Shown in pieces: positions 6,225-31,843 of a stretch of 32,000 nt of DNA. Source of the stretch: an uncultured archaeon (GTDB lineage: Archaea; Asgardarchaeota; Thorarchaeia; Thorarchaeales; Thorarchaeaceae); the NCBI GenBank assembly GCA_964354495.1, contig CAYHAA010000002.1:120001-152000 (forward strand), written 5' to 3'. Position numbers and translations under genes: made by a program. How positions within the stretch are numbered: position 1 is the stretch's first letter; every line of letters begins with the position of its first letter. The notes beneath the pieces were generated by a model. The model did not search any database. It saw only the letters and a program-made list of their open reading frames with translations, and was not told where the DNA came from.

Positions 6225-6830
6225 TCATCCAATGAAGAAGTCGCTCTCCTTCTTCCCCTCAGCCTCGTCCATCAAGCGCAATAGCTCTGTGAAAGCATCT
6301 TGGATCCCATCTCCGGTCTTGGCACTGGTTTCGCGAAAGATAGCGGGAACTCCAAGTTTGTTAATGAAGTACTTAGTGAAGTCCTTGCCCTCCTCAGTTG
6401 TCACATACTTGGACTTGTCAAGTGAATACCGCAGGTCTGTCTTGTTTCCAATAATGACAGTGGGTGGCAATGGACCCATATTCTTGAAAGCCTCAACTAG
6501 CCACTTGGAGGCATTCTCGAACGTTGACCGATTCACTACTGAGTATACCAACAGAATGCCATTGCAGCCCGAATAATAGTGGCCTCTGACTTTCTCGAAT
6601 GTTGGCTGACCAGCAAGATCCCAAATGATGAATTTTACGATATCCTGGTTAAACAAGACCCGCTTTGTCGCCAAGTCAACACCAATCGTAGCAATGTGAC
6701 CTTCAATGAACTCCTCGCCAAGATAGTTGCGGCGGATACTAGTTTTGCCAACTGCGCCGTCCCCTATGAGAACTGCCTTCAAAATTATGCTGCCATCATC
6801 TTGGTCCTTCACTATACGGTACCCTCGCAT
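6225..6830 (-). CDS. Rab-like small GTPase
   Basis: G1 GDGAVGKT, G2 ATIGVDL, G3 WDLAGQ, G4 NKTD and G5 ETSAK are all present, with RabF-like segments IGVDL, KFIIW, YYSGC and LVYSV. Confidence 0.95.
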   Translation of the reverse strand: MRGYRIVKDQDDGSIILKAVLIGDGAVGKTSIRRNYLGEEFIEGHIATIGVDLATKRVLFNQDIVKFIIWDLAGQPTFEKVRGHYYSGCNGILLVYSVVNRSTFENASKWLVEAFKNMGPLPPTVIIGNKTDLRYSLDKSKYVTTEEGKDFTKYFINKLGVPAIFRETSAKTGDGIQDAFTELLRLMDEAEGKKESDFFIG

Positions 6831-7503: not shown

Positions 7504-8532
7504 ATGAGAATGCTGCTATTCGTGGGTGTCTTGGTAGCGATATTGCTCTATTCGATTGGATTTGATGGGACGTACATGTCAGATGACATAGAATCAGTGA
7601 GCAATTCAAGGCCCAGTCAAACCTACACACCTCATGCTCCGATGGTCATAGACTCCAACGATGATTTTGCCAGTGAAGGTTGGTCGGGGGGAGGAATTCA
7701 AGGCAATCCCTATACGATTGAGTGGCTCGAATTCACAAGCGCAATTGACGAAGCATGCATAAGTATAAGCATGACAACCGCTTGGTTCAGAATTCGGTAC
7801 TGCTGTTTTGCTCCAACCGATTTTGCTTATGCTGTTACCCTATGGAATGTTTCAAATGGTGAAATCCTGCATTGCATTACAGCTGAACCTGCAGGGATTA
7901 TCTCAGTCGGCCTGTCCTCAGACATTCAGCTAGGACAGCTAGAATTACATGGAACATGCATAATCATGGAGTACTCCTGGATGTGTAGTGTTTCAGAGTG
8001 TAATACCTATTACGCGCCTGGAGATGGCGTGTTTTTCAATGGTTGCAGTCAAATGACAGTTGAAGGATGCGAAATCTCGTTTTCCACAGCAGCTGGAATC
8101 TCTCTAGCAGATACAGGATATTCATCATTTCTTGACAACATCATCTATGAGAATTCTATGGAACCGATATTCATCACTGGGACCTCTTCCGAAAATCAAA
8201 TTTACAATAATGAGATTCATTTAGTTTCTTACTGGGAAGCCAAGGATGACGGAGTCACTAACTACTGGGACAATGGTGTGTCTATAGGGAATATGTGGTC
8301 GGATTATGATGGGACTGGCTATTACTACGTCCCCGGTTCAGCCGGGTCCATTGACCATTATCCAAGAGTGATATCTTCGACTACAAATACAACGAATACT
8401 TCACCGGGACCTGCAGAGGTCTTGATAACAACTTGGGCACCAATGGATATGTCAGTGAGGGTCATACTGGCAGTGTCAATTGGAATGCTATATGGCGCTC
8501 TCGTTATCATAATCATCAAACGACTCAGGTAA
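7504..8532 (+). CDS. Secreted, membrane-anchored right-handed beta-helix (NosD/pectin-lyase-like) surface protein
   Basis: N-terminal signal peptide, cap TPHAPMVIDSNDDF...GNPYTIE, beta-helix repeats (FLDNIIYEN, QIYNNEI), end cap GNMWSDYDGTGYYYVPGSAGSIDHYP, Thr-rich linker and C-terminal TM plus KRLR. Confidence 0.8.
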   Translation: MRMLLFVGVLVAILLYSIGFDGTYMSDDIESVSNSRPSQTYTPHAPMVIDSNDDFASEGWSGGGIQGNPYTIEWLEFTSAIDEACISISMTTAWFRIRYCCFAPTDFAYAVTLWNVSNGEILHCITAEPAGIISVGLSSDIQLGQLELHGTCIIMEYSWMCSVSECNTYYAPGDGVFFNGCSQMTVEGCEISFSTAAGISLADTGYSSFLDNIIYENSMEPIFITGTSSENQIYNNEIHLVSYWEAKDDGVTNYWDNGVSIGNMWSDYDGTGYYYVPGSAGSIDHYPRVISSTTNTTNTSPGPAEVLITTWAPMDMSVRVILAVSIGMLYGALVIIIIKRLR

Positions 8533-10544: not shown

Positions 10545-10713
10545 CACAAAATGGGACTTTCCACTGATGGATCATGGAGAACAAAACGAAGAATCAGGTG
10601 ACTGGGATTTTATGGTGGGATATTAGTTCCGCACGATTCCGAAATCTTCTTCAACTGACTGACCAAATAGAACCGGGTTTGCCACCAAGCGCCATCATAT
10701 GGAGACAACTGGG

Positions 10714-11556
10714 ATGAGTGTTGAGCTACCTGAAGCAATGATTCTTGCTGAGCAAATGACAAAGACGTTACTCGGCAAACAAATCAAAGCATGTGAAATG
10801 TGGGACTATGAGAAACTGCAGAAAATCGGGTTCTTCAATAAAGACATCAAAGAATTCAATCGCCTCATAGGCTGTAAGATAGCGTCAATTCATCAGCGCG
10901 GAAACGTGATTCGCATTCAATTGAATAAAAAACTGAATCTCGTGTTGAGTCCGGACTATGGGGCAGAAATCCTCTACCATTCATCCGAGGAGTCACTGCC
11001 AAAGAAGCATCATTTGAAAGTCGGCTTTGCAGATGGCTCATATCTGACAATAAGGCAGACAGGCATGGGGATGATATACTGTGCAGCAGACAATGAGGTC
11101 AATAATCTATATGTTGTCAAACGGGATTTCTCAGAAACTCCGTCCCCTATTGGAGAGAATCAATTCACCTTCGACAAATTCACTGAGCTACTGGATAAAA
11201 GGGGTCAGAACATCAAGGCAGCTCTCGTCGGAAAGACTGCAGTTGTAGTAGGTCTAAGTAATGCTGCATTTCAAGAGATAATCTACAAAGCAGGAATCCA
11301 TCCAAAGAGGAACACCTCCACATTATCAGAGAGTGAGAAACACGCCGTCTTCGAGGCTATGAAGGAGATTCTCAATGCACGCGTTTCTTCAGGTGGAAAG
11401 GAAAACTGGATTGACCTCTATGGAAAACCAGGGCGTCATACTCCAGTAATGGGTTCCAACATGAAGGACAAGAGCTGTCCTCAATGCGGGGCAAGAATTG
11501 AGATGATAGCTCATGGAGGCGGTCAGGTCTACTTCTGTCCAAGATGTCAGAAATGA
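10714..11556 (+). CDS. Fpg/Nei (MutM-like) family protein with divergent active site
   Basis: ELPE N-terminal motif, H2TH (GLSNAAFQEIIYKAGIHP) and C-terminal zinc finger CPQC...FCPRCQK. Start set at ATG 10714 (GGAG SD at 10701); the ORF track starts at 10699. Confidence 0.88.
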   Translation: MSVELPEAMILAEQMTKTLLGKQIKACEMWDYEKLQKIGFFNKDIKEFNRLIGCKIASIHQRGNVIRIQLNKKLNLVLSPDYGAEILYHSSEESLPKKHHLKVGFADGSYLTIRQTGMGMIYCAADNEVNNLYVVKRDFSETPSPIGENQFTFDKFTELLDKRGQNIKAALVGKTAVVVGLSNAAFQEIIYKAGIHPKRNTSTLSESEKHAVFEAMKEILNARVSSGGKENWIDLYGKPGRHTPVMGSNMKDKSCPQCGARIEMIAHGGGQVYFCPRCQK

Positions 11557-25340: not shown

Positions 25341-25556
25341 AAGAACCAGTGAATAGGGCGTTCCAGGTTCTCTCAAGTTCATATGCGGTTCATGCAGAAT
25401 CTAGCATATTGTTGAGAATCACCGAGACATTGTGCTAGCTAGACTGGTATGTGGAAGCTCTTTTAGTTCAGAGAACGAAGCTCAGAACGTATTTGAATAA
25501 TACCAGCTAGGAGTGGAGCTCTTATTCTACAAGGTTCGATCGGGGGACTTGTTTCA

Positions 25557-26663
25557 TTGGCAATAGCACTGATTATCATGGCATGTTGCGGCCTGGGCGC
25601 GCTTGGTCAGGCACCTGCAAAAGCACAACAAGAAGGGTCGTACCAAGCTGAGTCGGCCAAGAGGGATAGACCACAGTCAACTTCGAAGGAAAAGAGCCAA
25701 CAGACTGCTACACTACTAGAGAAGTGGATCACATGGTCGGGAGAAGGATTGAGGCCCGGGTATACACCACCGATGCTACCTGTGATGCAGGAGACAAAAC
25801 CAATTCCTGGCTTGGCTCGCTCATTAGAAGTGCATAGGTCATACTCACAGCCTGAAGAGCAGCCTGTGAAGGCAGTGCGCGGAGGAGAATTCATTGGCAA
25901 CCGGATGCGATACAAGGTCAAGGTGTTGAATGAGTCCAGGTATACCATAACAGATGTGAGGGTCTTCCTCATCTCGTACCCAACCGAGTCTCTGAAACTG
26001 GTAAGCCAAGATGACGATGCATACTACACAAAGATCGAACCGGGAGGTTTTCGAAGTCCCTCATTCGACTTTCTGCCAACGCATGACTGCGTTCAGGGGG
26101 AGATCAGTGCAGGAGTGTCATATGTCGACATGACGGGTCAACCGCACACGCTAGCAACCAAGCCATTTGTCATTCGCTCAGTCTGTGACCTCCTGATACC
26201 AGATCAGATAGAACCAAAGGAGTTCGCACTCAGGCTTAAAAGTCTTGAGTGTGGTGAGATTGTCGTGAAGGTCACTGACTGGACACCTGAAGAGATGTAC
26301 GAAAAGGCACTGCGCATTGTTGAGGACGCGAATTTCTACGAAGTGGATAGCCGCACAGAAACCAAGGATGGCGTCATCCATGCGAAAATCAGTGGACTCG
26401 CCAAGGGGAAATACACCGGCAAGAGCGTCGCAGTGGAGCTGCATATTACTGGGCCTTCTAGCAAGAAGGGAGCTAGCTGCAAGATTAAGGTGTCAGGCGA
26501 AGACCAAGCAATGATACTGCCTGCGATAGACGACCTGCGTGAGCGTCTTAACGCTTGGCTATGCCCCATGTGTTCAAGCCCATTGACCCTTGAAAACGTC
26601 CAAGACCTGAAGGCAGGCAAGGCTGTGGTGTGTCCCTTCTGCAGTGTTTCGATAGGACGATAG
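25557..26663 (+). CDS. Probable N-terminally membrane-anchored protein with adaptin/gamma-COP appendage-like (Ig + platform) domains and a C-terminal zinc ribbon
   Basis: Hydrophobic N-terminus, low-complexity linker, beta-sandwich (RMRYKVKVLN...VSYVD), alpha/beta platform-like region and CPMC...CPFC. The frame is open upstream to 25497, so the start is uncertain. The CDS is well supported; the fold call is by eye. Confidence 0.6.
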   Translation: MAIALIIMACCGLGALGQAPAKAQQEGSYQAESAKRDRPQSTSKEKSQQTATLLEKWITWSGEGLRPGYTPPMLPVMQETKPIPGLARSLEVHRSYSQPEEQPVKAVRGGEFIGNRMRYKVKVLNESRYTITDVRVFLISYPTESLKLVSQDDDAYYTKIEPGGFRSPSFDFLPTHDCVQGEISAGVSYVDMTGQPHTLATKPFVIRSVCDLLIPDQIEPKEFALRLKSLECGEIVVKVTDWTPEEMYEKALRIVEDANFYEVDSRTETKDGVIHAKISGLAKGKYTGKSVAVELHITGPSSKKGASCKIKVSGEDQAMILPAIDDLRERLNAWLCPMCSSPLTLENVQDLKAGKAVVCPFCSVSIGR

Positions 26664-26678
26664 GGGGTACCTGGCGTT

Positions 26679-27029
26679 CTGCAGTACTCATCGCTGTATA
26701 ACCTACTAGGTTGGCTAGTCTTTAGCGGACCGCTCCTCTGTTGGATTGAGCTGCTCATTCTCGAAAGAAGGAAGGCTTCAGCAGCAGCAATGACATACTC
26801 ATTTGGAGCAGTTCTGAGTTTCTGGGGTCCAGGGATGATAATGATTGTTGCGGATTTCATTGAGTTGACGCGCTGGACAAATCTGATTGGACATATCGGG
26901 GGTTATCTATTGATGCTCCTTGCACTCATCCAGCATTACTTTGACCTGAGGAAGAGTAGAATCTTGGCAGAAGAAAATAATAGTTCACTAGAAGAGCAAT
27001 TCACCTGTGTGCACCGAACACCCAGATGA
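26679..27029 (+). CDS. Small 3-TM membrane protein, start uncertain
   Basis: The frame is open from 26664, directly after the TAG of the previous gene and in the same frame. It contains a further TM (LYNLLGWLVFSGPLLCWIELLIL) upstream of the first ATG at 26790. CTG 26679 or GTT 26676 are candidate starts. Confidence 0.55.
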   Translation: MQYSSLYNLLGWLVFSGPLLCWIELLILERRKASAAAMTYSFGAVLSFWGPGMIMIVADFIELTRWTNLIGHIGGYLLMLLALIQHYFDLRKSRILAEENNSSLEEQFTCVHRTPR

Positions 27030-27059: not shown

Positions 27060-27725
27060 CTATGCGAATCCTCGACTCAAACCTGCGCCACCTGCGCCGA
27101 ACTTAATCTGAGTATACCTCGCATCCTTACCGGGTTCCTCTCCTTTCAACTCACGCTTCAACTTTTCATAACAGCTTTCACAAGTTGATTCGAGTTGGAA
27201 CTTAGACTTGTTGAGTTTAAGCGAATCCTTGCCAAGCCCTTCGACGAAGTCGTGCGGTACTAGCAAGTCAATGTCAGGCGCTGCGTGTATTTTTTTCTGA
27301 AACGCATCGAAGATGCCACCGCCAACAACCAACGAAAGATGGCTGGCAGTATCAAACCAGAGATCAACGACATGACCTATCTCGAAGCCATCTGAATCAA
27401 CGACCTTGCGCTTCGCAAGTTTCGAGAATTTCACGTCGGTCTTTGCAATGACTTCCTTATCTATCGTTTTGCATAGCGAGTCGCTATCGATTCTTAGGTA
27501 CACTCTGTCTGAAACACTATCAATATCGGACACGCTGCAGACAGGGTCAATATCAGGACGAGCTCCAATCGCCTCTAGGAGCTCTTCGACCCTCCCGCCT
27601 CCAAGGATAAGATACTTCAAATCAAGCCTGTTGCCAGAAACACTGAAGATTCCGTCGGACACTACACCAATCTTCTCACCATTCGAATCTATAACATCCT
27701 TGTTCCTGATCTCGCCATATTTCAT
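27060..27725 (-). CDS. Tandem PRC-barrel domain protein
   Basis: Two repeats: NKDVIDSNGEKIGVVSD...LILGGG...PDID and KRKVVDSDGFEIGHVVD...LVVGGG...PDID. Start set at ATG 27725 (MKYG). Confidence 0.88.
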   Translation of the reverse strand: MKYGEIRNKDVIDSNGEKIGVVSDGIFSVSGNRLDLKYLILGGGRVEELLEAIGARPDIDPVCSVSDIDSVSDRVYLRIDSDSLCKTIDKEVIAKTDVKFSKLAKRKVVDSDGFEIGHVVDLWFDTASHLSLVVGGGIFDAFQKKIHAAPDIDLLVPHDFVEGLGKDSLKLNKSKFQLESTCESCYEKLKRELKGEEPGKDARYTQIKFGAGGAGLSRGFA

Positions 27726-27775
27726 ATTGCAACACTGAATCATAGTAACCACACACTACAATACACAATTGTTAA

Positions 27776-27783
27776 TATATAAA
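27776..27783 (-). promoter_or_regulatory. Putative TATA box for the PRC-barrel gene
   Basis: TTTATATA on the minus strand about 50 nt upstream of ATG 27725. Confidence 0.45.
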
Positions 27784-27881
27784 ATTTCCCCTTTTCTCGG
27801 AGAACCCGAAAGCTCTGGAGATGTGACTCTAAAAGAAAGACGATGAGAACCCAGTCAGGGCTCACCAGCAAGTCTAGAGAA

Positions 27882-28184
27882 TTAGTACACTTCTCGAGGG
27901 CTTTCTCGCAATCTGTCCGGTAATTTACCGCCTTCACCAACGACTTCAAGGTCGTGGTCTCGGCCCACTCGACCACCATCATTGCATAGGAACCCCGATT
28001 TGGTGATTCCGCGTGCCTGACGCTCAGCAGCACGGCGAGCAATCATGCTCTTCCCAGCAGGGACAGTCATTACTAGCTTCTTTTTGCTCCCGTCAATTGC
28101 CAGAAGAATGGCACTATCTGCAGAGTTGCGCGTGGTCTCAAAGAACTGAGAGGTCGACTCATTAAACTCAAGGTAGACTGGCAT
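27882..28184 (-). CDS. Small protein, probable single gelsolin-like domain
   Basis: Order of elements: strand SAILLAID, strand KKLVMTVP, long helix KSMIARRAAERQARGITK, strand LEVVGEG, short helix. This matches the gelsolin-domain pattern by eye. Confidence 0.5.
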   Translation of the reverse strand: MPVYLEFNESTSQFFETTRNSADSAILLAIDGSKKKLVMTVPAGKSMIARRAAERQARGITKSGFLCNDGGRVGRDHDLEVVGEGGKLPDRLRESPREVY

Positions 28185-28276
28185 TAGGATTCTAGTCCTC
28201 CAATGGCTATGACAGTTCTATTTCTCAGCTGAGTGCATATTAATGAATCTCGCGCGAGTTCCAAACCATTCTATGC

Positions 28277-28960
28277 CTATAGCAAGTGAGCTGTACCACA
28301 ATGTGGACAGACAACAGCGTCATCAAAATCGCCTGGTAGTGGCAACGGTGCATCGCAGTTCTGGCATTTCAGTTCCTTAATTTGAGTCCGGTCCACTTGT
28401 GTGAGTTTTATTTTGAAGACCCTCTCTGCAACATCTTGAATGGTCTTTCCGACCCTCTGAGCCGCACGCGCAATTTCACTGCGTTCAGGATCCGTGAGAG
28501 ACCCCAAGCCAACCGCCTGAAACACGCCATCAATGGCTCTTCCGATTTTACCGATTACTGAGCCCGCTTTCCAAGCAATGACGTCCGGGGTGTGCAATTC
28601 ATAGATCTCAGAATCAGGGTGACTTGGAAGTTCATATCCGCTCTCCCAATCAACTCGATCAGAAGTTTCGGGTGCAAGAGGAGTACCACAACTTGGACAG
28701 GTGAGTCTCCAGTCGGGTTTCTTGAACCAACCTCTCTTTATCTTCTTCTCGCCAATATCGTACCAGCATCTTTTGTGAGCAATCTTCCCGCAATTCGGGC
28801 ACGCAAAGAGGTGGTACATATCAGGACTGGCTTTGGTCTTGGTTCCAGTATGGACCTTTAGGTAAGCCAAGTCATTGTCTGTCCAGTTGAGCAGATAACG
28901 ACCACAGATGAAGCATACCTTTCCATCGAGTTTGTTCATCTTCTCAGGAGTGATTCGCAT
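28277..28960 (-). CDS. C4HC3 (PHD/RING-like, Prok-RING-like) zinc finger protein with C-terminal zinc ribbon
   Basis: C-x2-C-x34-C-x2-C-x4-H-x2-C-x22-C-x2-C, then a helical region, then CQNC...CPHC. Start ATG 28960 or 28939. Confidence 0.75.
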   Translation of the reverse strand: MRITPEKMNKLDGKVCFICGRYLLNWTDNDLAYLKVHTGTKTKASPDMYHLFACPNCGKIAHKRCWYDIGEKKIKRGWFKKPDWRLTCPSCGTPLAPETSDRVDWESGYELPSHPDSEIYELHTPDVIAWKAGSVIGKIGRAIDGVFQAVGLGSLTDPERSEIARAAQRVGKTIQDVAERVFKIKLTQVDRTQIKELKCQNCDAPLPLPGDFDDAVVCPHCGTAHLL

Positions 28961-29107
28961 AGTAGATTGCCTCAGTCTACGGAAGGTAAACGAGGATATA
29001 AGAACCTTACAACTGATGCAAAATCCAGATTCGAAACTGACGAGTCGTGAAATCATGGATGCCGAAACTCTATTAGCAGGCTTTGTCACTTCGTTGAAAT
29101 CAGCTTC

Positions 29108-31843
29108 TTGATGTCAGAGGAGGTATCAAAGATTAGCAGCACTACGCTCGTTGTTGATTTGAACGATATTGATGCGAAAGCTCTGTCTGCAACGGGAGGA
29201 AAAGCCTCGAATCTGTCATTGTTGGCAAGATCAGGTTTCAGGGTGCCCAAGGGGTTTGTTGTAACTACTGAAGCATACTCCAAGTTCACTCAGTTGAATG
29301 ACCTCAACAGCCTGGCCAGTCGGTATCTAAAGAATATCACTCATAGAGATATGGAAAACCTTGGTCAAGTTACTGCAGACATGAGAAGACGGGTCGAGGA
29401 AGCTACTCTACCAGATGATCTTGTTGCTGCAGTAAAGTCAGCATATGTACTGATGGGTTCAGGACCTGTGGCCATCAGGTCTTCTGCAACGGCAGAGGAT
29501 TTGCCTGATGCTTCATTTGCCGGCCAGTATGATACTTCGCTCTATATAGAGGGAATAGATGATGTTCTAAAACACATCAAGCATTGTTTCAGTTCGATGT
29601 GGACTGAACGAGCAGTTGCCTACCGAGAAGAGAATCATATTCCTCATGAACAGGTCCGATTGGCAGTTGTGATTCAATCAATGGTGAATGCAAGATGCGC
29701 TGGTGCGTTGTTCACAAATAACCCTCTGTCCGACTCCAATAACGAAATGATAATTGAGTCCAACTTCGGTCTTGGTGAATCTGTGGTGTCTGGATATACA
29801 GTCCCAGATAGGTACGTCGTATCGAAGGGTACTTCCAGACCAAGGGAATATTCTCTCATCAGTCGGGAAATAGGCTCTAAGGACATCATGGTTGAGAGAG
29901 CATCGACGGGAGAAGGTGTTCAGCAGTCAAGCATAGGATTTGAAATGAGCCAACAATCATCATTAGATGATTGGCAGGTCATCAGATTGGCTGAACTGGG
30001 TGACTCAATTGAGGAGTTCTTTGAATCACCTCAAGATGTCGAATGGGCAATTGACCAGCAGGGAGAAATCCATCTCCTGCAATCCCGTCCAATAACGGCT
30101 AAGGCAAGAATAATGGGCAAAGACAAGGACGAGATCTTCTGGACTCGAGGATACGCCGACGATTACTGGAACGATCCCGTGACGCCTCTATTCTACAGCC
30201 TGCTAGGGGACCAGATAACATACATTGTGAACATCGAAGCTAATGCAGTAATGGGCTACAAGAATATGCCCGATACGCTTCTCAAGCTCTACAAGGGACA
30301 TGCCTACTTCAATCTCGACGTGCTTCGCACGAAGGTCGTGAATGAGATGCCGCCGTTCATCAGATCAGACGATGTGATGAATTACTTCCCAGAGGGATCT
30401 GGACCGTACGGCAAGGATACCATGAGGAAACTCCCCTTCGCCCTCCCAACGAGAATCATGGCCGAGATTCGAGTGATGCTACTTGATGCCGATGGCAGTA
30501 TGACGAAGACAAACTCAGCGTACGAAAAATGGACAAAAGAGACCTTCGAGCCAGCATGCAAGGTCTTCGACTCGAAGCTGGAAAGCCTAAGGGAAAACGG
30601 CACCCTAGAGGATTATATTGAGATTGCAGATGACCTAGATAAGACGATGATGCGTCACTTTAGAATGGTCAGGTACGGTCTTCCAGTTCATACGCTCGGC
30701 ATGAATCTGATCACCAATTATCTGCTAAAGCGATGGTTGGGCGAAAAGGCTGCAACTACACTGTATCCGATTCTTCTCTCTGGTCTCAAACACAAGACCC
30801 GCGAAACCAATAGGAGAATCGATGAGCTTGCTTCAATCATTCGAGATAGTCCTGAACTCACGAGAATCTTGCAGGACGTTCCTTCTCAGGATCTTCTGGT
30901 TCATTTCCGAAGACAACCTGAGGCGGGTTCTCTGTTTATGACGAAGTTCGATGAGTTCATGGTTGACCTAGGTGACCGTGGTTTCACGAGAGAGCCATAC
31001 TTCCCGAGATGGAGAGAGCATCCAGCCTATGTTTTTGACATACTGAAGTCACTCGTGTCTGAGGGATCAAGAAACCTGAAGCAAGGAGAAGAAGATCTGG
31101 CACAAAAGCGTGCGAAAGCCGAGAAGCTGGTAGTAGAGGTAATTCGCGCTCAGAGATATGGCCCCATCAAAAAGATGCTCTTCTCAACCATCCTAGGAAT
31201 GGCAAGAACTTATGTCTGCTTCAGGGAGAATCAGAGGTTCAATCTTGACCGCTGGATCACTCGTGAGAGAAATGCATACCTCGAGATTGGCAAGCAACTT
31301 GTCAAGAAAGGATACTTTGGAGAGCCAAAACATGTGTTCTTCCTCTTTAGAAATGAGTTGAGAGGGGTAGTGAGGGGCAAATCGAAACTTGATAAAGAGA
31401 ATGTCAAAAGCCTTGTTGCGGAACGCTACGAGGAATTCCTCAAGTATGAGAACATCACGCCCCCAAAGTTTCTGCATGGCGATAGAGAGTTTGATGACCC
31501 AATACCGACATCTGCCGAAGGTTTCAAGGGAATGCCTGCAAGTCACGGATTGGTTACGGGGCAGGTACGTGTGTTAGCGAGCGTTGAGGAAGTTCCACAG
31601 GTGCGAGCTGGTGAAATACTGATCGTGCCGCGAACAGATCCCGGATGGACTCCGGTCTTTTCCAAAATAGGGGGTCTTATCACAGAAACTGGAGGAATTC
31701 TCTCTCATGGTGCAGTGGTAGCACGCGAGTTTGGCATTCCTGCTGTCACTAATGTGCGGAATGCCTGCCAGGTTTTCAAAACAGGACAAAGAGTGACAGT
31801 AGACGGAAATAAGGGAATTGTACTTAGGCTTGATTCGGAGTGA
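29108..31843 (+). CDS. PEP-synthase-superfamily phosphotransferase with Rph-type architecture (ATP-grasp, substrate domain, phospho-His swivel)
   Basis: GGKASNL, AIRSSATAEDLPDASFAGQYDT, QDVEWAI and LQSRPIT at the N-terminus, and TETGGILSHGAVVAREFGIP at the extreme C-terminus. No PEP-binding barrel. Alternative start ATG 29111. Confidence 0.9.
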   Translation: MMSEEVSKISSTTLVVDLNDIDAKALSATGGKASNLSLLARSGFRVPKGFVVTTEAYSKFTQLNDLNSLASRYLKNITHRDMENLGQVTADMRRRVEEATLPDDLVAAVKSAYVLMGSGPVAIRSSATAEDLPDASFAGQYDTSLYIEGIDDVLKHIKHCFSSMWTERAVAYREENHIPHEQVRLAVVIQSMVNARCAGALFTNNPLSDSNNEMIIESNFGLGESVVSGYTVPDRYVVSKGTSRPREYSLISREIGSKDIMVERASTGEGVQQSSIGFEMSQQSSLDDWQVIRLAELGDSIEEFFESPQDVEWAIDQQGEIHLLQSRPITAKARIMGKDKDEIFWTRGYADDYWNDPVTPLFYSLLGDQITYIVNIEANAVMGYKNMPDTLLKLYKGHAYFNLDVLRTKVVNEMPPFIRSDDVMNYFPEGSGPYGKDTMRKLPFALPTRIMAEIRVMLLDADGSMTKTNSAYEKWTKETFEPACKVFDSKLESLRENGTLEDYIEIADDLDKTMMRHFRMVRYGLPVHTLGMNLITNYLLKRWLGEKAATTLYPILLSGLKHKTRETNRRIDELASIIRDSPELTRILQDVPSQDLLVHFRRQPEAGSLFMTKFDEFMVDLGDRGFTREPYFPRWREHPAYVFDILKSLVSEGSRNLKQGEEDLAQKRAKAEKLVVEVIRAQRYGPIKKMLFSTILGMARTYVCFRENQRFNLDRWITRERNAYLEIGKQLVKKGYFGEPKHVFFLFRNELRGVVRGKSKLDKENVKSLVAERYEEFLKYENITPPKFLHGDREFDDPIPTSAEGFKGMPASHGLVTGQVRVLASVEEVPQVRAGEILIVPRTDPGWTPVFSKIGGLITETGGILSHGAVVAREFGIPAVTNVRNACQVFKTGQRVTVDGNKGIVLRLDSE

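Follow-up and report, generated by a model that had tools for sequence, protein, structure and literature searches.

Does an archaeal protein display, directly on its own membrane anchor, the appendage or "ear" of eukaryotic coat subunits? The question is raised by the reading frame at positions 25497-26663 (+ strand) of a 32,000-nucleotide (nt) stretch from an uncultured archaeon of the Thorarchaeaceae (contig CAYHAA010000002.1, positions 120,001 to 152,000; the whole analysed stretch is referred to as the window), for which an initial annotation had proposed a membrane anchor, an adaptin/gamma-COP-like ear composed of an Ig-like and a platform subdomain, and a zinc ribbon. In eukaryotic vesicle coats, ears are the hubs that recruit partners. 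The best explanation of the window gene is a small bitopic membrane protein with a very short N-terminus outside, one transmembrane helix, a flexible cytoplasmic linker, a bilobed ear and a zinc ribbon, an anatomy that we regard as very probable. By analogy with the eukaryotic ears, the ear module may act as a membrane-proximal protein-protein interaction platform that would link membrane proteins to soluble machinery; this cytoplasmic role is put forward tentatively. A wide variety of membrane proteins would present the module on the inner side of the membrane, and the window gene would represent a "headless" form that offers the platform only. In the explanation as a whole, comprising the anatomy, the mobile module and the platform role, our confidence is moderate.

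The frame is open after the TGA at 25494-25496 and ends with the stop codon TAG at 26661-26663. All peptides quoted in the initial annotation were recovered, in the order given there, from the translation of the + frame 25383-26663 and of the open reading frame (ORF) 25557-26663: a hydrophobic stretch up to ...IIMACC is followed by the linker, a beta block starting with VKAVRGGEF, an alpha/beta block starting with EPKEFALRLK, and a C-terminus with CPMC-x19-CPFC. A word-indexed search returned 278 homologues at E<=1e-3 with 55-77% identity, nearly all of them labelled Thorarchaeota, and an exhaustive HMMER search of 1.84 billion representatives gave 397 matches. In an alignment of 28 homologues of the window gene (A1), no variation is seen at the four ribbon cysteines and in dozens of further columns. 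Due to these homologues, matches and invariant columns a chance ORF is ruled out, and the frame is a real, strongly conserved gene of Thorarchaeota. The sequencing runs considered contained only short contigs of relatives; one of 186 nt, from a wetland metatranscriptome, spans 26521-26706, across the stop codon, which is not proof of transcription. No ATG, GTG or TTG occurs in this frame between 25497 and 25556; the canonical starts are TTG 25557 (368 amino acids (aa), the mechanical ORF P0001) and ATG 25578 (361 aa, the database gene call P0002). The gene is composed of the following features.

25509..25518, + strand: Shine-Dalgarno-like sequence AGGAGTGGAG, read directly, with AAGGAG at the matching place in the orthologous loci L006 and L021
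25524..25526, + strand: probable start codon ATT (M-L-Q..., 379 aa), suggested by alignment, with TTG 25557 and ATG 25578 as alternatives
25533..25607, + strand: single transmembrane anchor of 25 uncharged residues with Cys-Cys near its cytoplasmic end, predicted N-out/C-in from hydropathy and charge
25608..25865, + strand: variable cytoplasmic linker of 86 residues, rich in Q/P/E/S/K and predicted to be disordered (predicted local distance difference test, pLDDT, <50 in the full-length model; length and sequence vary in A1)
25800..25814, + strand: conserved P-I-P-G-(V/L) motif inside the linker, from the conservation in A1
25866..26183, + strand: predicted Ig-like beta-sandwich subdomain, residues 104-209 of P0001 (pLDDT >90), aligning with the AP-2 and COPI ear sandwiches
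26193..26552, + strand: predicted platform subdomain, beta-alpha-beta4-alpha, residues 213-332, from the secondary structure of the model and the match to the AP-4 beta platform 2mj7
26562..26663, + strand: C-terminal four-Cys zinc ribbon (CPMC...CPFC) with the TAG stop; C336, C339, C359 and C362 invariant, pLDDT 85-93

The central evidence for the ear is provided by a domain-only model (md877e717c17d), for which residues 96-368 were refolded with a diverse 58-sequence alignment of the ear and zinc ribbon module alone (A2). This model reached a pLDDT of 93.6 and a predicted template modelling score (pTM) of 0.75, with no segment below 50. Its 14 best Foldseek matches in the PDB are, without exception, appendages of AP-2 (alpha or beta2) or COPI. 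The top match, 9qpq_H (E 9.7e-11, template modelling (TM) score 0.66 for the query and 0.73 for the target, root mean square deviation (rmsd) 3.6 Å, 240 columns), probably is the beta-COP appendage, judging from its residue numbers 722-953. VIA-align superimposed 224 of the 243 residues of 9qpq_H with Z 17.9 and rmsd 3.1 Å, followed by seven alpha-ear entries at Z ~15 (210 residues), the beta2 ear at Z 14.5 and gamma-COP at Z 14.0. Overall, the appendages of alpha/beta2-adaptin and beta/gamma-COP cover a range of Z 13.5-17.9 over 205-224 residues, the alpha and beta2 ears having TM scores of about 0.5 to this model. The AP-4 beta appendage 2mj7, which consists of the platform only, matches at Z 13.2 with rmsd 2.4 Å over 113 residues, and the best unrelated single-lobe match is the TRAP-beta sandwich at Z 12.6.

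With a pLDDT of 72 the full-length AlphaFold model is mediocre, due to the disordered linker and an uncertain segment between the lobes. Its best Foldseek matches are again AP-2 alpha ears, COPI and the beta2 ear (E ~2e-8, 236-245 columns). With a structure aligner independent of Foldseek, two-lobe matches were obtained for BBS9 (Z 11.7) and gamma-COP (Z 9.7) and for the alpha and beta2 ears (Z 9.3 each), along with single-lobe matches to many Ig-like sandwiches (Z 10-12) and to KA1/TBP-like domains (Z 10-11); the GAE domains 3mnm and 2ymt match the sandwich at Z 9.2-9.6. Two further searches, which are related to each other in kind but both independent of Foldseek and the PDB, place clusters of eukaryotic alpha-adaptin appendages right after the clusters of the family itself: a language-model search at cosine 0.77, taken as a lead only, and an Atlas shape search at TM 0.55-0.60 over 205-216 residues. 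Sandwich and platform are thus confidently predicted to be both present, in the order and with the mutual orientation of an ear. The comparison of an AlphaFold model with coat appendages, which had been named beforehand as a check, returned a match over both subdomains, and since sandwich and platform both align in ear orientation, the outcome differs from a generic Ig fold without platform. The proposed order of an Ig-like plus platform ear followed by a zinc ribbon was in this way borne out by the models and by the four invariant cysteines.

Two other folds were considered and rejected. An arrestin- or Spo0M-like reading yielded TM scores of only 0.22-0.25. For Sec23/24, the domain order is wrong and the model has no trunk, helical or gelsolin part; traces of this family are given by sub-threshold zf-Sec23_Sec24 matches on the ribbon (E 0.04-0.08) and by a sandwich-only match to ArnAB (8s05_B, Z 9.8). 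Among the 58 members of A2, weak sub-threshold Pfam matches comprise GAE_BBS1 in 10 (best E 0.0032) and zf-Sec23_Sec24 in 12. As a separate observation, the sandwich carries two D-C/C-D pairs, D177-C178-V179 (26085-26093) and V209-C210-D211 (26181-26189) in P0001 numbering, whose conservation among the 58 diverse members is complete or at least 90%. RGGE, EPGGFRSP, GKYTGK and GEDxAM are further residues that do not vary in the family.

Whether the ear of the window gene is anchored depends on the start codon. ATT 25524 is preceded by an AGGAG at a distance of 10 nt and by a second GGAG at 5 nt, and the window residues I-L-Q (ATT-CTA-CAA, 25524-25532) align with the N-termini M-L-Q, M-Q or V-L-Q of the homologues in A1. 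In the orthologous loci, AAGGAG is followed by ATG-CAA (L006:7983-8006) or by ATA-CTT-CAG (L021:3022-3047), so that the ATT of the window and the ATA of L021 take the place of the ATG or GTG of other orthologs. Gene callers chose either a downstream ATG that drops the membrane anchor or a far-upstream start. Based on the upstream AGGAG, the M-L-Q alignment and the ortholog AAGGAG with a start at the same place, we infer that translation probably initiates at the near-cognate ATT 25524, giving 379 aa, with TTG 25557 as a fallback. Only if translation begins no later than 25557 is the hydrophobic segment kept: the best 19-residue Kyte-Doolittle window is 2.59 from ATT 25524, 2.0 from TTG and 0.15 from ATG 25578, and therefore the annotated protein lacks the anchor.

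For the family, the topology signals are uniform. The N-termini of the 28 homologues contain a hydrophobic segment of ~20-25 residues that starts a few residues in, with almost no lysine or arginine (K/R) before it and 1-9 K/R within the 20 residues after it, which corresponds to the positive-inside pattern; in the window gene there are 0 K/R before the anchor and 6 in the 30 residues after it. The anchor is conserved in the family and accordingly predicted to be oriented N-out/C-in. The initial claim of a membrane anchor thus holds for the homologues by conservation and charge pattern, but in the window gene itself it hinges on a non-canonical or TTG start. The remainder of the protein including the ear is presumably cytoplasmic, due to the positive-inside pattern, the four-Cys ribbon and the presence of soluble zinc-ribbon-repeat and HEAT paralogues in the same genome. 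A lipoprotein reading of ...IMAC|C was discarded, as there is no basic n-region, the homologues share no consistent lipobox, the charge pattern indicates N-out/C-in and the C-terminal part is a zinc ribbon predicted to bind zinc. Independently of this, 26 of the 28 headless homologues have 1-3 cysteines towards the cytoplasmic end of the transmembrane segment (Cys-Cys at 25578-25589 in the window), a position that resembles eukaryotic juxtamembrane acylation sites. To our knowledge, no archaeal equivalent of such sites has been described.

Within the variable linker, the P-I-P-G-(V/L) motif stands out by its conservation: I83 and G85 are invariant in A1, and P82, P84 and V86 are at least 90% conserved. 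Only the headless subfamily has this motif, which the linkers of the long type I relatives lack. It may be a short linear binding motif; in the full-length AlphaFold model it is not docked onto the ear. At the C-terminus, Pfam ribbon matches in the protein and the 58 members are sub-threshold only.

The ear is not restricted to headless proteins. Residues ~100-368 recur in the HMMER matches as the C-terminal module of proteins ranging from 264 to 2,867 residues. The long members carry domains of extracellular type, namely NosD/beta-helix, PKD, Big_13, DUF2341, and PQQ or SBBP propellers, and according to hydropathy scans their usual layout is a signal-like N-terminus, an ectodomain, one transmembrane helix with an immediate R/K cluster, a linker of 40-80 residues, and the module. 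In other members the module follows 3-6 transmembrane helices, or there is no such helix at all. Across the 301 genomes of the phylum that were surveyed, the module was detected in 70 of the 76 genomes of the window's own family, with 1-8 matches each that are often in tandem, and in 63/68, 5/5 and 6/7 genomes of three other families; in terms of abundance, the window's own family and the one with 63/68 are accompanied by smaller shares in five others. Searches of several further families did not detect it (0/28, 0/19 and 0/21 genomes). Partners in other lineages comprise DDRGK/UFM1-ligase/PCI with a borderline Vps28-C, HEAT repeats with a ribbon, LRR with PCI, TPR, and winged helices; the first of these architectures is represented by L009, matched by the A2 profile at E 9.7e-21. 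In the explanation preferred here, ear and ribbon form a mobile cytoplasmic domain of Asgard archaea.

The genome of the window contains three copies of the module, one in the window gene and two in soluble-type paralogues.

L002:1471-3747 and L002:3-1394 (G000:C9), - strand: 758-aa soluble protein with ~8 CxxC...C..H zinc modules, ear and ribbon; the next gene encodes a zinc-repeat protein
L003:1471-2691 (G000:C1), - strand: 406-aa paralogue with HEAT_2, linker and ear; 26% identity, E 2e-18 over both lobes

The 758-aa zinc-repeat-ear protein is, in almost all genomes of the family, the best-conserved form of the module (E ~1e-120). As regards the surroundings of the HEAT-ear gene, L003:885-1460 (+) and L003:2718-3644 (+) are a convergent Ras-family GTPase gene and a divergent WD40 gene.

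The further proposal of the initial annotation, a minimal proto-adaptor, is not supported by the analysis: no Pfam adaptin model is matched, and neither a coat nor an ESCRT gene was detected among the ORFs scanned in the window. Since the ear mainly forms the cytoplasmic tail of other membrane proteins, a tag on the side of the cargo or receptor fits these data at least as well as an adaptor. It is tempting to go further and to regard ear and ribbon as a primordial sorting handle on cargo: dozens of surface or polytopic membrane proteins and the headless anchors would show the same cytoplasmic ear, which the soluble HEAT, PCI/Vps28-C and zinc-ribbon-repeat paralogues would read and couple to ESCRT- or coat-like machinery, and the eukaryotic adaptin and COPI ears would have descended from this module. 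This scenario, taken in full, we consider doubtful. The system gains in importance because its ear appears to be attached to membranes directly and to form part of the tails of numerous surface proteins, and a small, well-folded module is suited for expression, partner hunts and structure determination, which makes it a good experimental entry to Asgard membrane biology.

Several observations weigh against the interaction-platform explanation and its link to coats. In hmmscan searches of Pfam at E<=0.1, the protein matched neither PF02883, PF02296 and PF09066 nor a COP appendage family, and no adaptin or COP appendage is among the 25 families most often matched by the 58 members at E<=1. Searches of the PDB sequences with phmmer and with the family profile gave nothing significant, the best being Pex19 (E 0.11) and arrestin (E 0.6). 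Each lobe taken alone is a common fold (Ig-like, Z 10-12; KA1/TBP-like, Z 10-11), no partner gene is evident in the neighbourhood, where the conserved EamA, PRC-barrel, zinc-ribbon protein and Rph-like kinase genes reflect synteny within one family only, and only a non-canonical ATT or a TTG start would give the window gene its anchor. This last point leads to the reading of a soluble protein, translated from ATG 25578 with the upstream hydrophobic codons left untranslated. That codon is the sole ATG and was picked by the gene callers (P0002), and the N-terminus it yields is without a hydrophobic window. However, the upstream in-frame codons align with the anchors of 27 homologues, the L-Q motif included, AGGAG precedes ATT 25524 by 10 nt, and behind the same AAGGAG the orthologs start at the equivalent place with ATG, GTG or ATA, so that a soluble product appears very improbable. 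A convergent or too ancient resemblance has more in its favour. A common Ig-like sandwich would merely stand beside a common TBP/KA1-like domain, with a function unrelated to coat-type recruitment, e.g., the binding of acidic lipids as in KA1, or signalling. This would agree with the missing Pfam and PDB sequence signal to adaptin ears, with the match of KA1 to the second lobe (Z 10-11, rmsd 2.5 Å) and with the many unrelated sandwiches at Z 10-12. On the other hand, the two-lobe matches in the same orientation exceed the single-lobe matches (Z 17.9 vs 12.6; TM 0.73 for the 243-residue target), the AP-4 platform (Z 13.2) surpasses KA1, weak GAE_BBS1 matches occur in 10 of the 58 members, and in the part of their supplement considered here, Eme et al. 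(PMC10307638) assigned PF02883 to Loki and Hel relatives that share this layout. Weighing both sides, we regard convergence as unlikely. Nine module-bearing proteins from four other Asgard families were scanned as a possible bridge, and none matched PF02883 at E<=0.01. Since no sequence method reaches the eukaryotic families, the case for common descent of the Asgard module and the eukaryotic coat ears, which the models suggest, rests on structure and architecture.

A further alternative retains the cytoplasmic ear and changes its partner. In a homotypic or heterotypic pairing, ears on the tails of membrane proteins would bind ears on the soluble paralogues with HEAT, PCI/Vps28-C or zinc-ribbon repeats, similar to death or TIR domains that join receptors to adaptors, and the headless protein would serve as docking site or competitor. 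The occurrence of the same domain on receptor-like tails and on soluble scaffold proteins, as well as the 1-8 and often tandem copies per genome, is in agreement with such pairing, whereas eukaryotic ears bind short linear motifs and not each other. We consider it improbable, and prefer a membrane-proximal platform for soluble partners as the tentative function of the ear.

The neighbourhood of the gene was screened by a Pfam scan of all ORFs of at least 120 aa in the window, except for the Fpg-like 10699-11556, and no Vps4, Snf7, ESCRT or coat gene was detected among them. The same scan shows transporters, two-component proteins, a Ras-family GTPase 19 kb away, a PRC-barrel protein and others. 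Adjacent to the ear gene, the block 27060-31843 comprises a double PRC-barrel gene (-), a gene for a 100-aa protein (-), a multi-zinc-ribbon gene (-) and an Rph-like PPDK_N/PEP-utilizer kinase gene (+), and it is kept beside the ear gene or genes in four Thorarchaeota loci (window, L005, L006 and L021). Probably this is synteny by descent. A reading of these neighbours as operon partners was rejected, their conservation reflecting synteny in Thorarchaeota only. Directly downstream of the ear gene, a small hydrophobic ORF is situated at 26676-27029 (+; 79 aa from ATG 26790), with a called gene of 72 aa as counterpart in L006 (9248-9466) and none in L005 or L021. About 18-19 kb upstream, a Ras/Rab-family small GTPase gene (6225-6830, -) and a NosD/beta-helix gene of 342 aa (7504-8532, +) are located.

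Archaeal ears have already been published (PMC10307638, PMC11188069), and the window protein belongs to that kind; for this reason the value of the single gene is confirmatory, with an unusually clean fold match. Two recent structure-based surveys of Asgard archaea (PMC12962969, PMC13734099) do not mention appendages, and in the literature searched, no discussion was found of the thorarchaeal subfamily, of the headless anchored form or of how widely membrane proteins use the module as their inner tail.

According to Eme et al. 2023 (PMC10307638), Asgard archaea have homologues of every AP and COPI domain, including standalone Alpha_adaptinC2 and B2-adapt-app_C domains that are sparsely distributed and not fused to Adaptin_N. 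In the part of supplementary file 5 considered here, Lokiarchaeales proteins of ~330 aa with PF02883 have a CxxC...CxxC ribbon after the ear, and in Helarchaeales proteins with PF02883 the ear is preceded by an ectodomain and a transmembrane segment. The window protein is similar to the former in its ear and ribbon and to the latter in the transmembrane segment preceding the ear. Differences are given by taxonomy, as the entries in that part are Lokiarchaeales or Helarchaeales and none is from Thorarchaeia, by the failure of the Thor family to match PF02883 in hmmscan, and by the treatment of ears in PMC10307638 as soluble standalone domains, membrane tethering not being discussed there.

Archaeal "adaptin appendage regions" composed of an IG and a TBP lobe were described by Makarova et al. 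2024 (PMC11188069), among them Meth_adaptin proteins, one bearing a zinc ribbon and another attached to a GOLD domain via a transmembrane linker, as well as Asgard Vps28-C/longin/PCI proteins bearing the appendage region. The family studied here shares with them the two-lobe IG and TBP composition in archaea, in some cases accompanied by a zinc ribbon and in some placed behind a transmembrane linker, and the A2 match at E 9.7e-21 is to an Asgard protein with PCI and Vps28-C. Unlike these proteins, the window gene has no ESCRT (Vps4/ESCRT-III) neighbourhood, and its form is headless, with ~3-7 residues outside, and carries the subfamily-specific PIPG(V/L).

Among other two-lobe proteins, the GAE and platform of the BBSome subunit BBS9 (6vbu_9) match at Z 11.7 over 171-190 residues, in line with the weak GAE_BBS1 Pfam matches; BBSome subunits, however, score below the COPI and AP-2 ears and have a beta-propeller of their own before and a helical domain after this region. 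In case of KA1, the second lobe reaches Z 10-11 as compared to Z 13.2 for the adaptin platform, and the window gene has no kinase context.

The closest known structures are the ears of COPI beta/gamma-COP and AP-2 alpha/beta2 (9qpq_H, 1pzd/1r4x, 1b9k/1w80, 1e42). No sequence similarity to them is detectable, with 10-16% identity in the structural alignments; the ear of the window protein is predicted to sit on a transmembrane helix and linker, whereas theirs sit on the HEAT trunk of a heterotetramer, and it has an extra C-terminal zinc ribbon. The HEAT/alpha-solenoid and hinge before the ear are absent from the window gene, and a HEAT_2 and linker precede the ear in the paralogue L003:1471-2691. 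Common to both is a domain of ~235 residues that terminates a flexible linker at the cytoplasmic face of a membrane system and in which the sandwich is directly followed by a beta-alpha-beta4-alpha platform in the same orientation.

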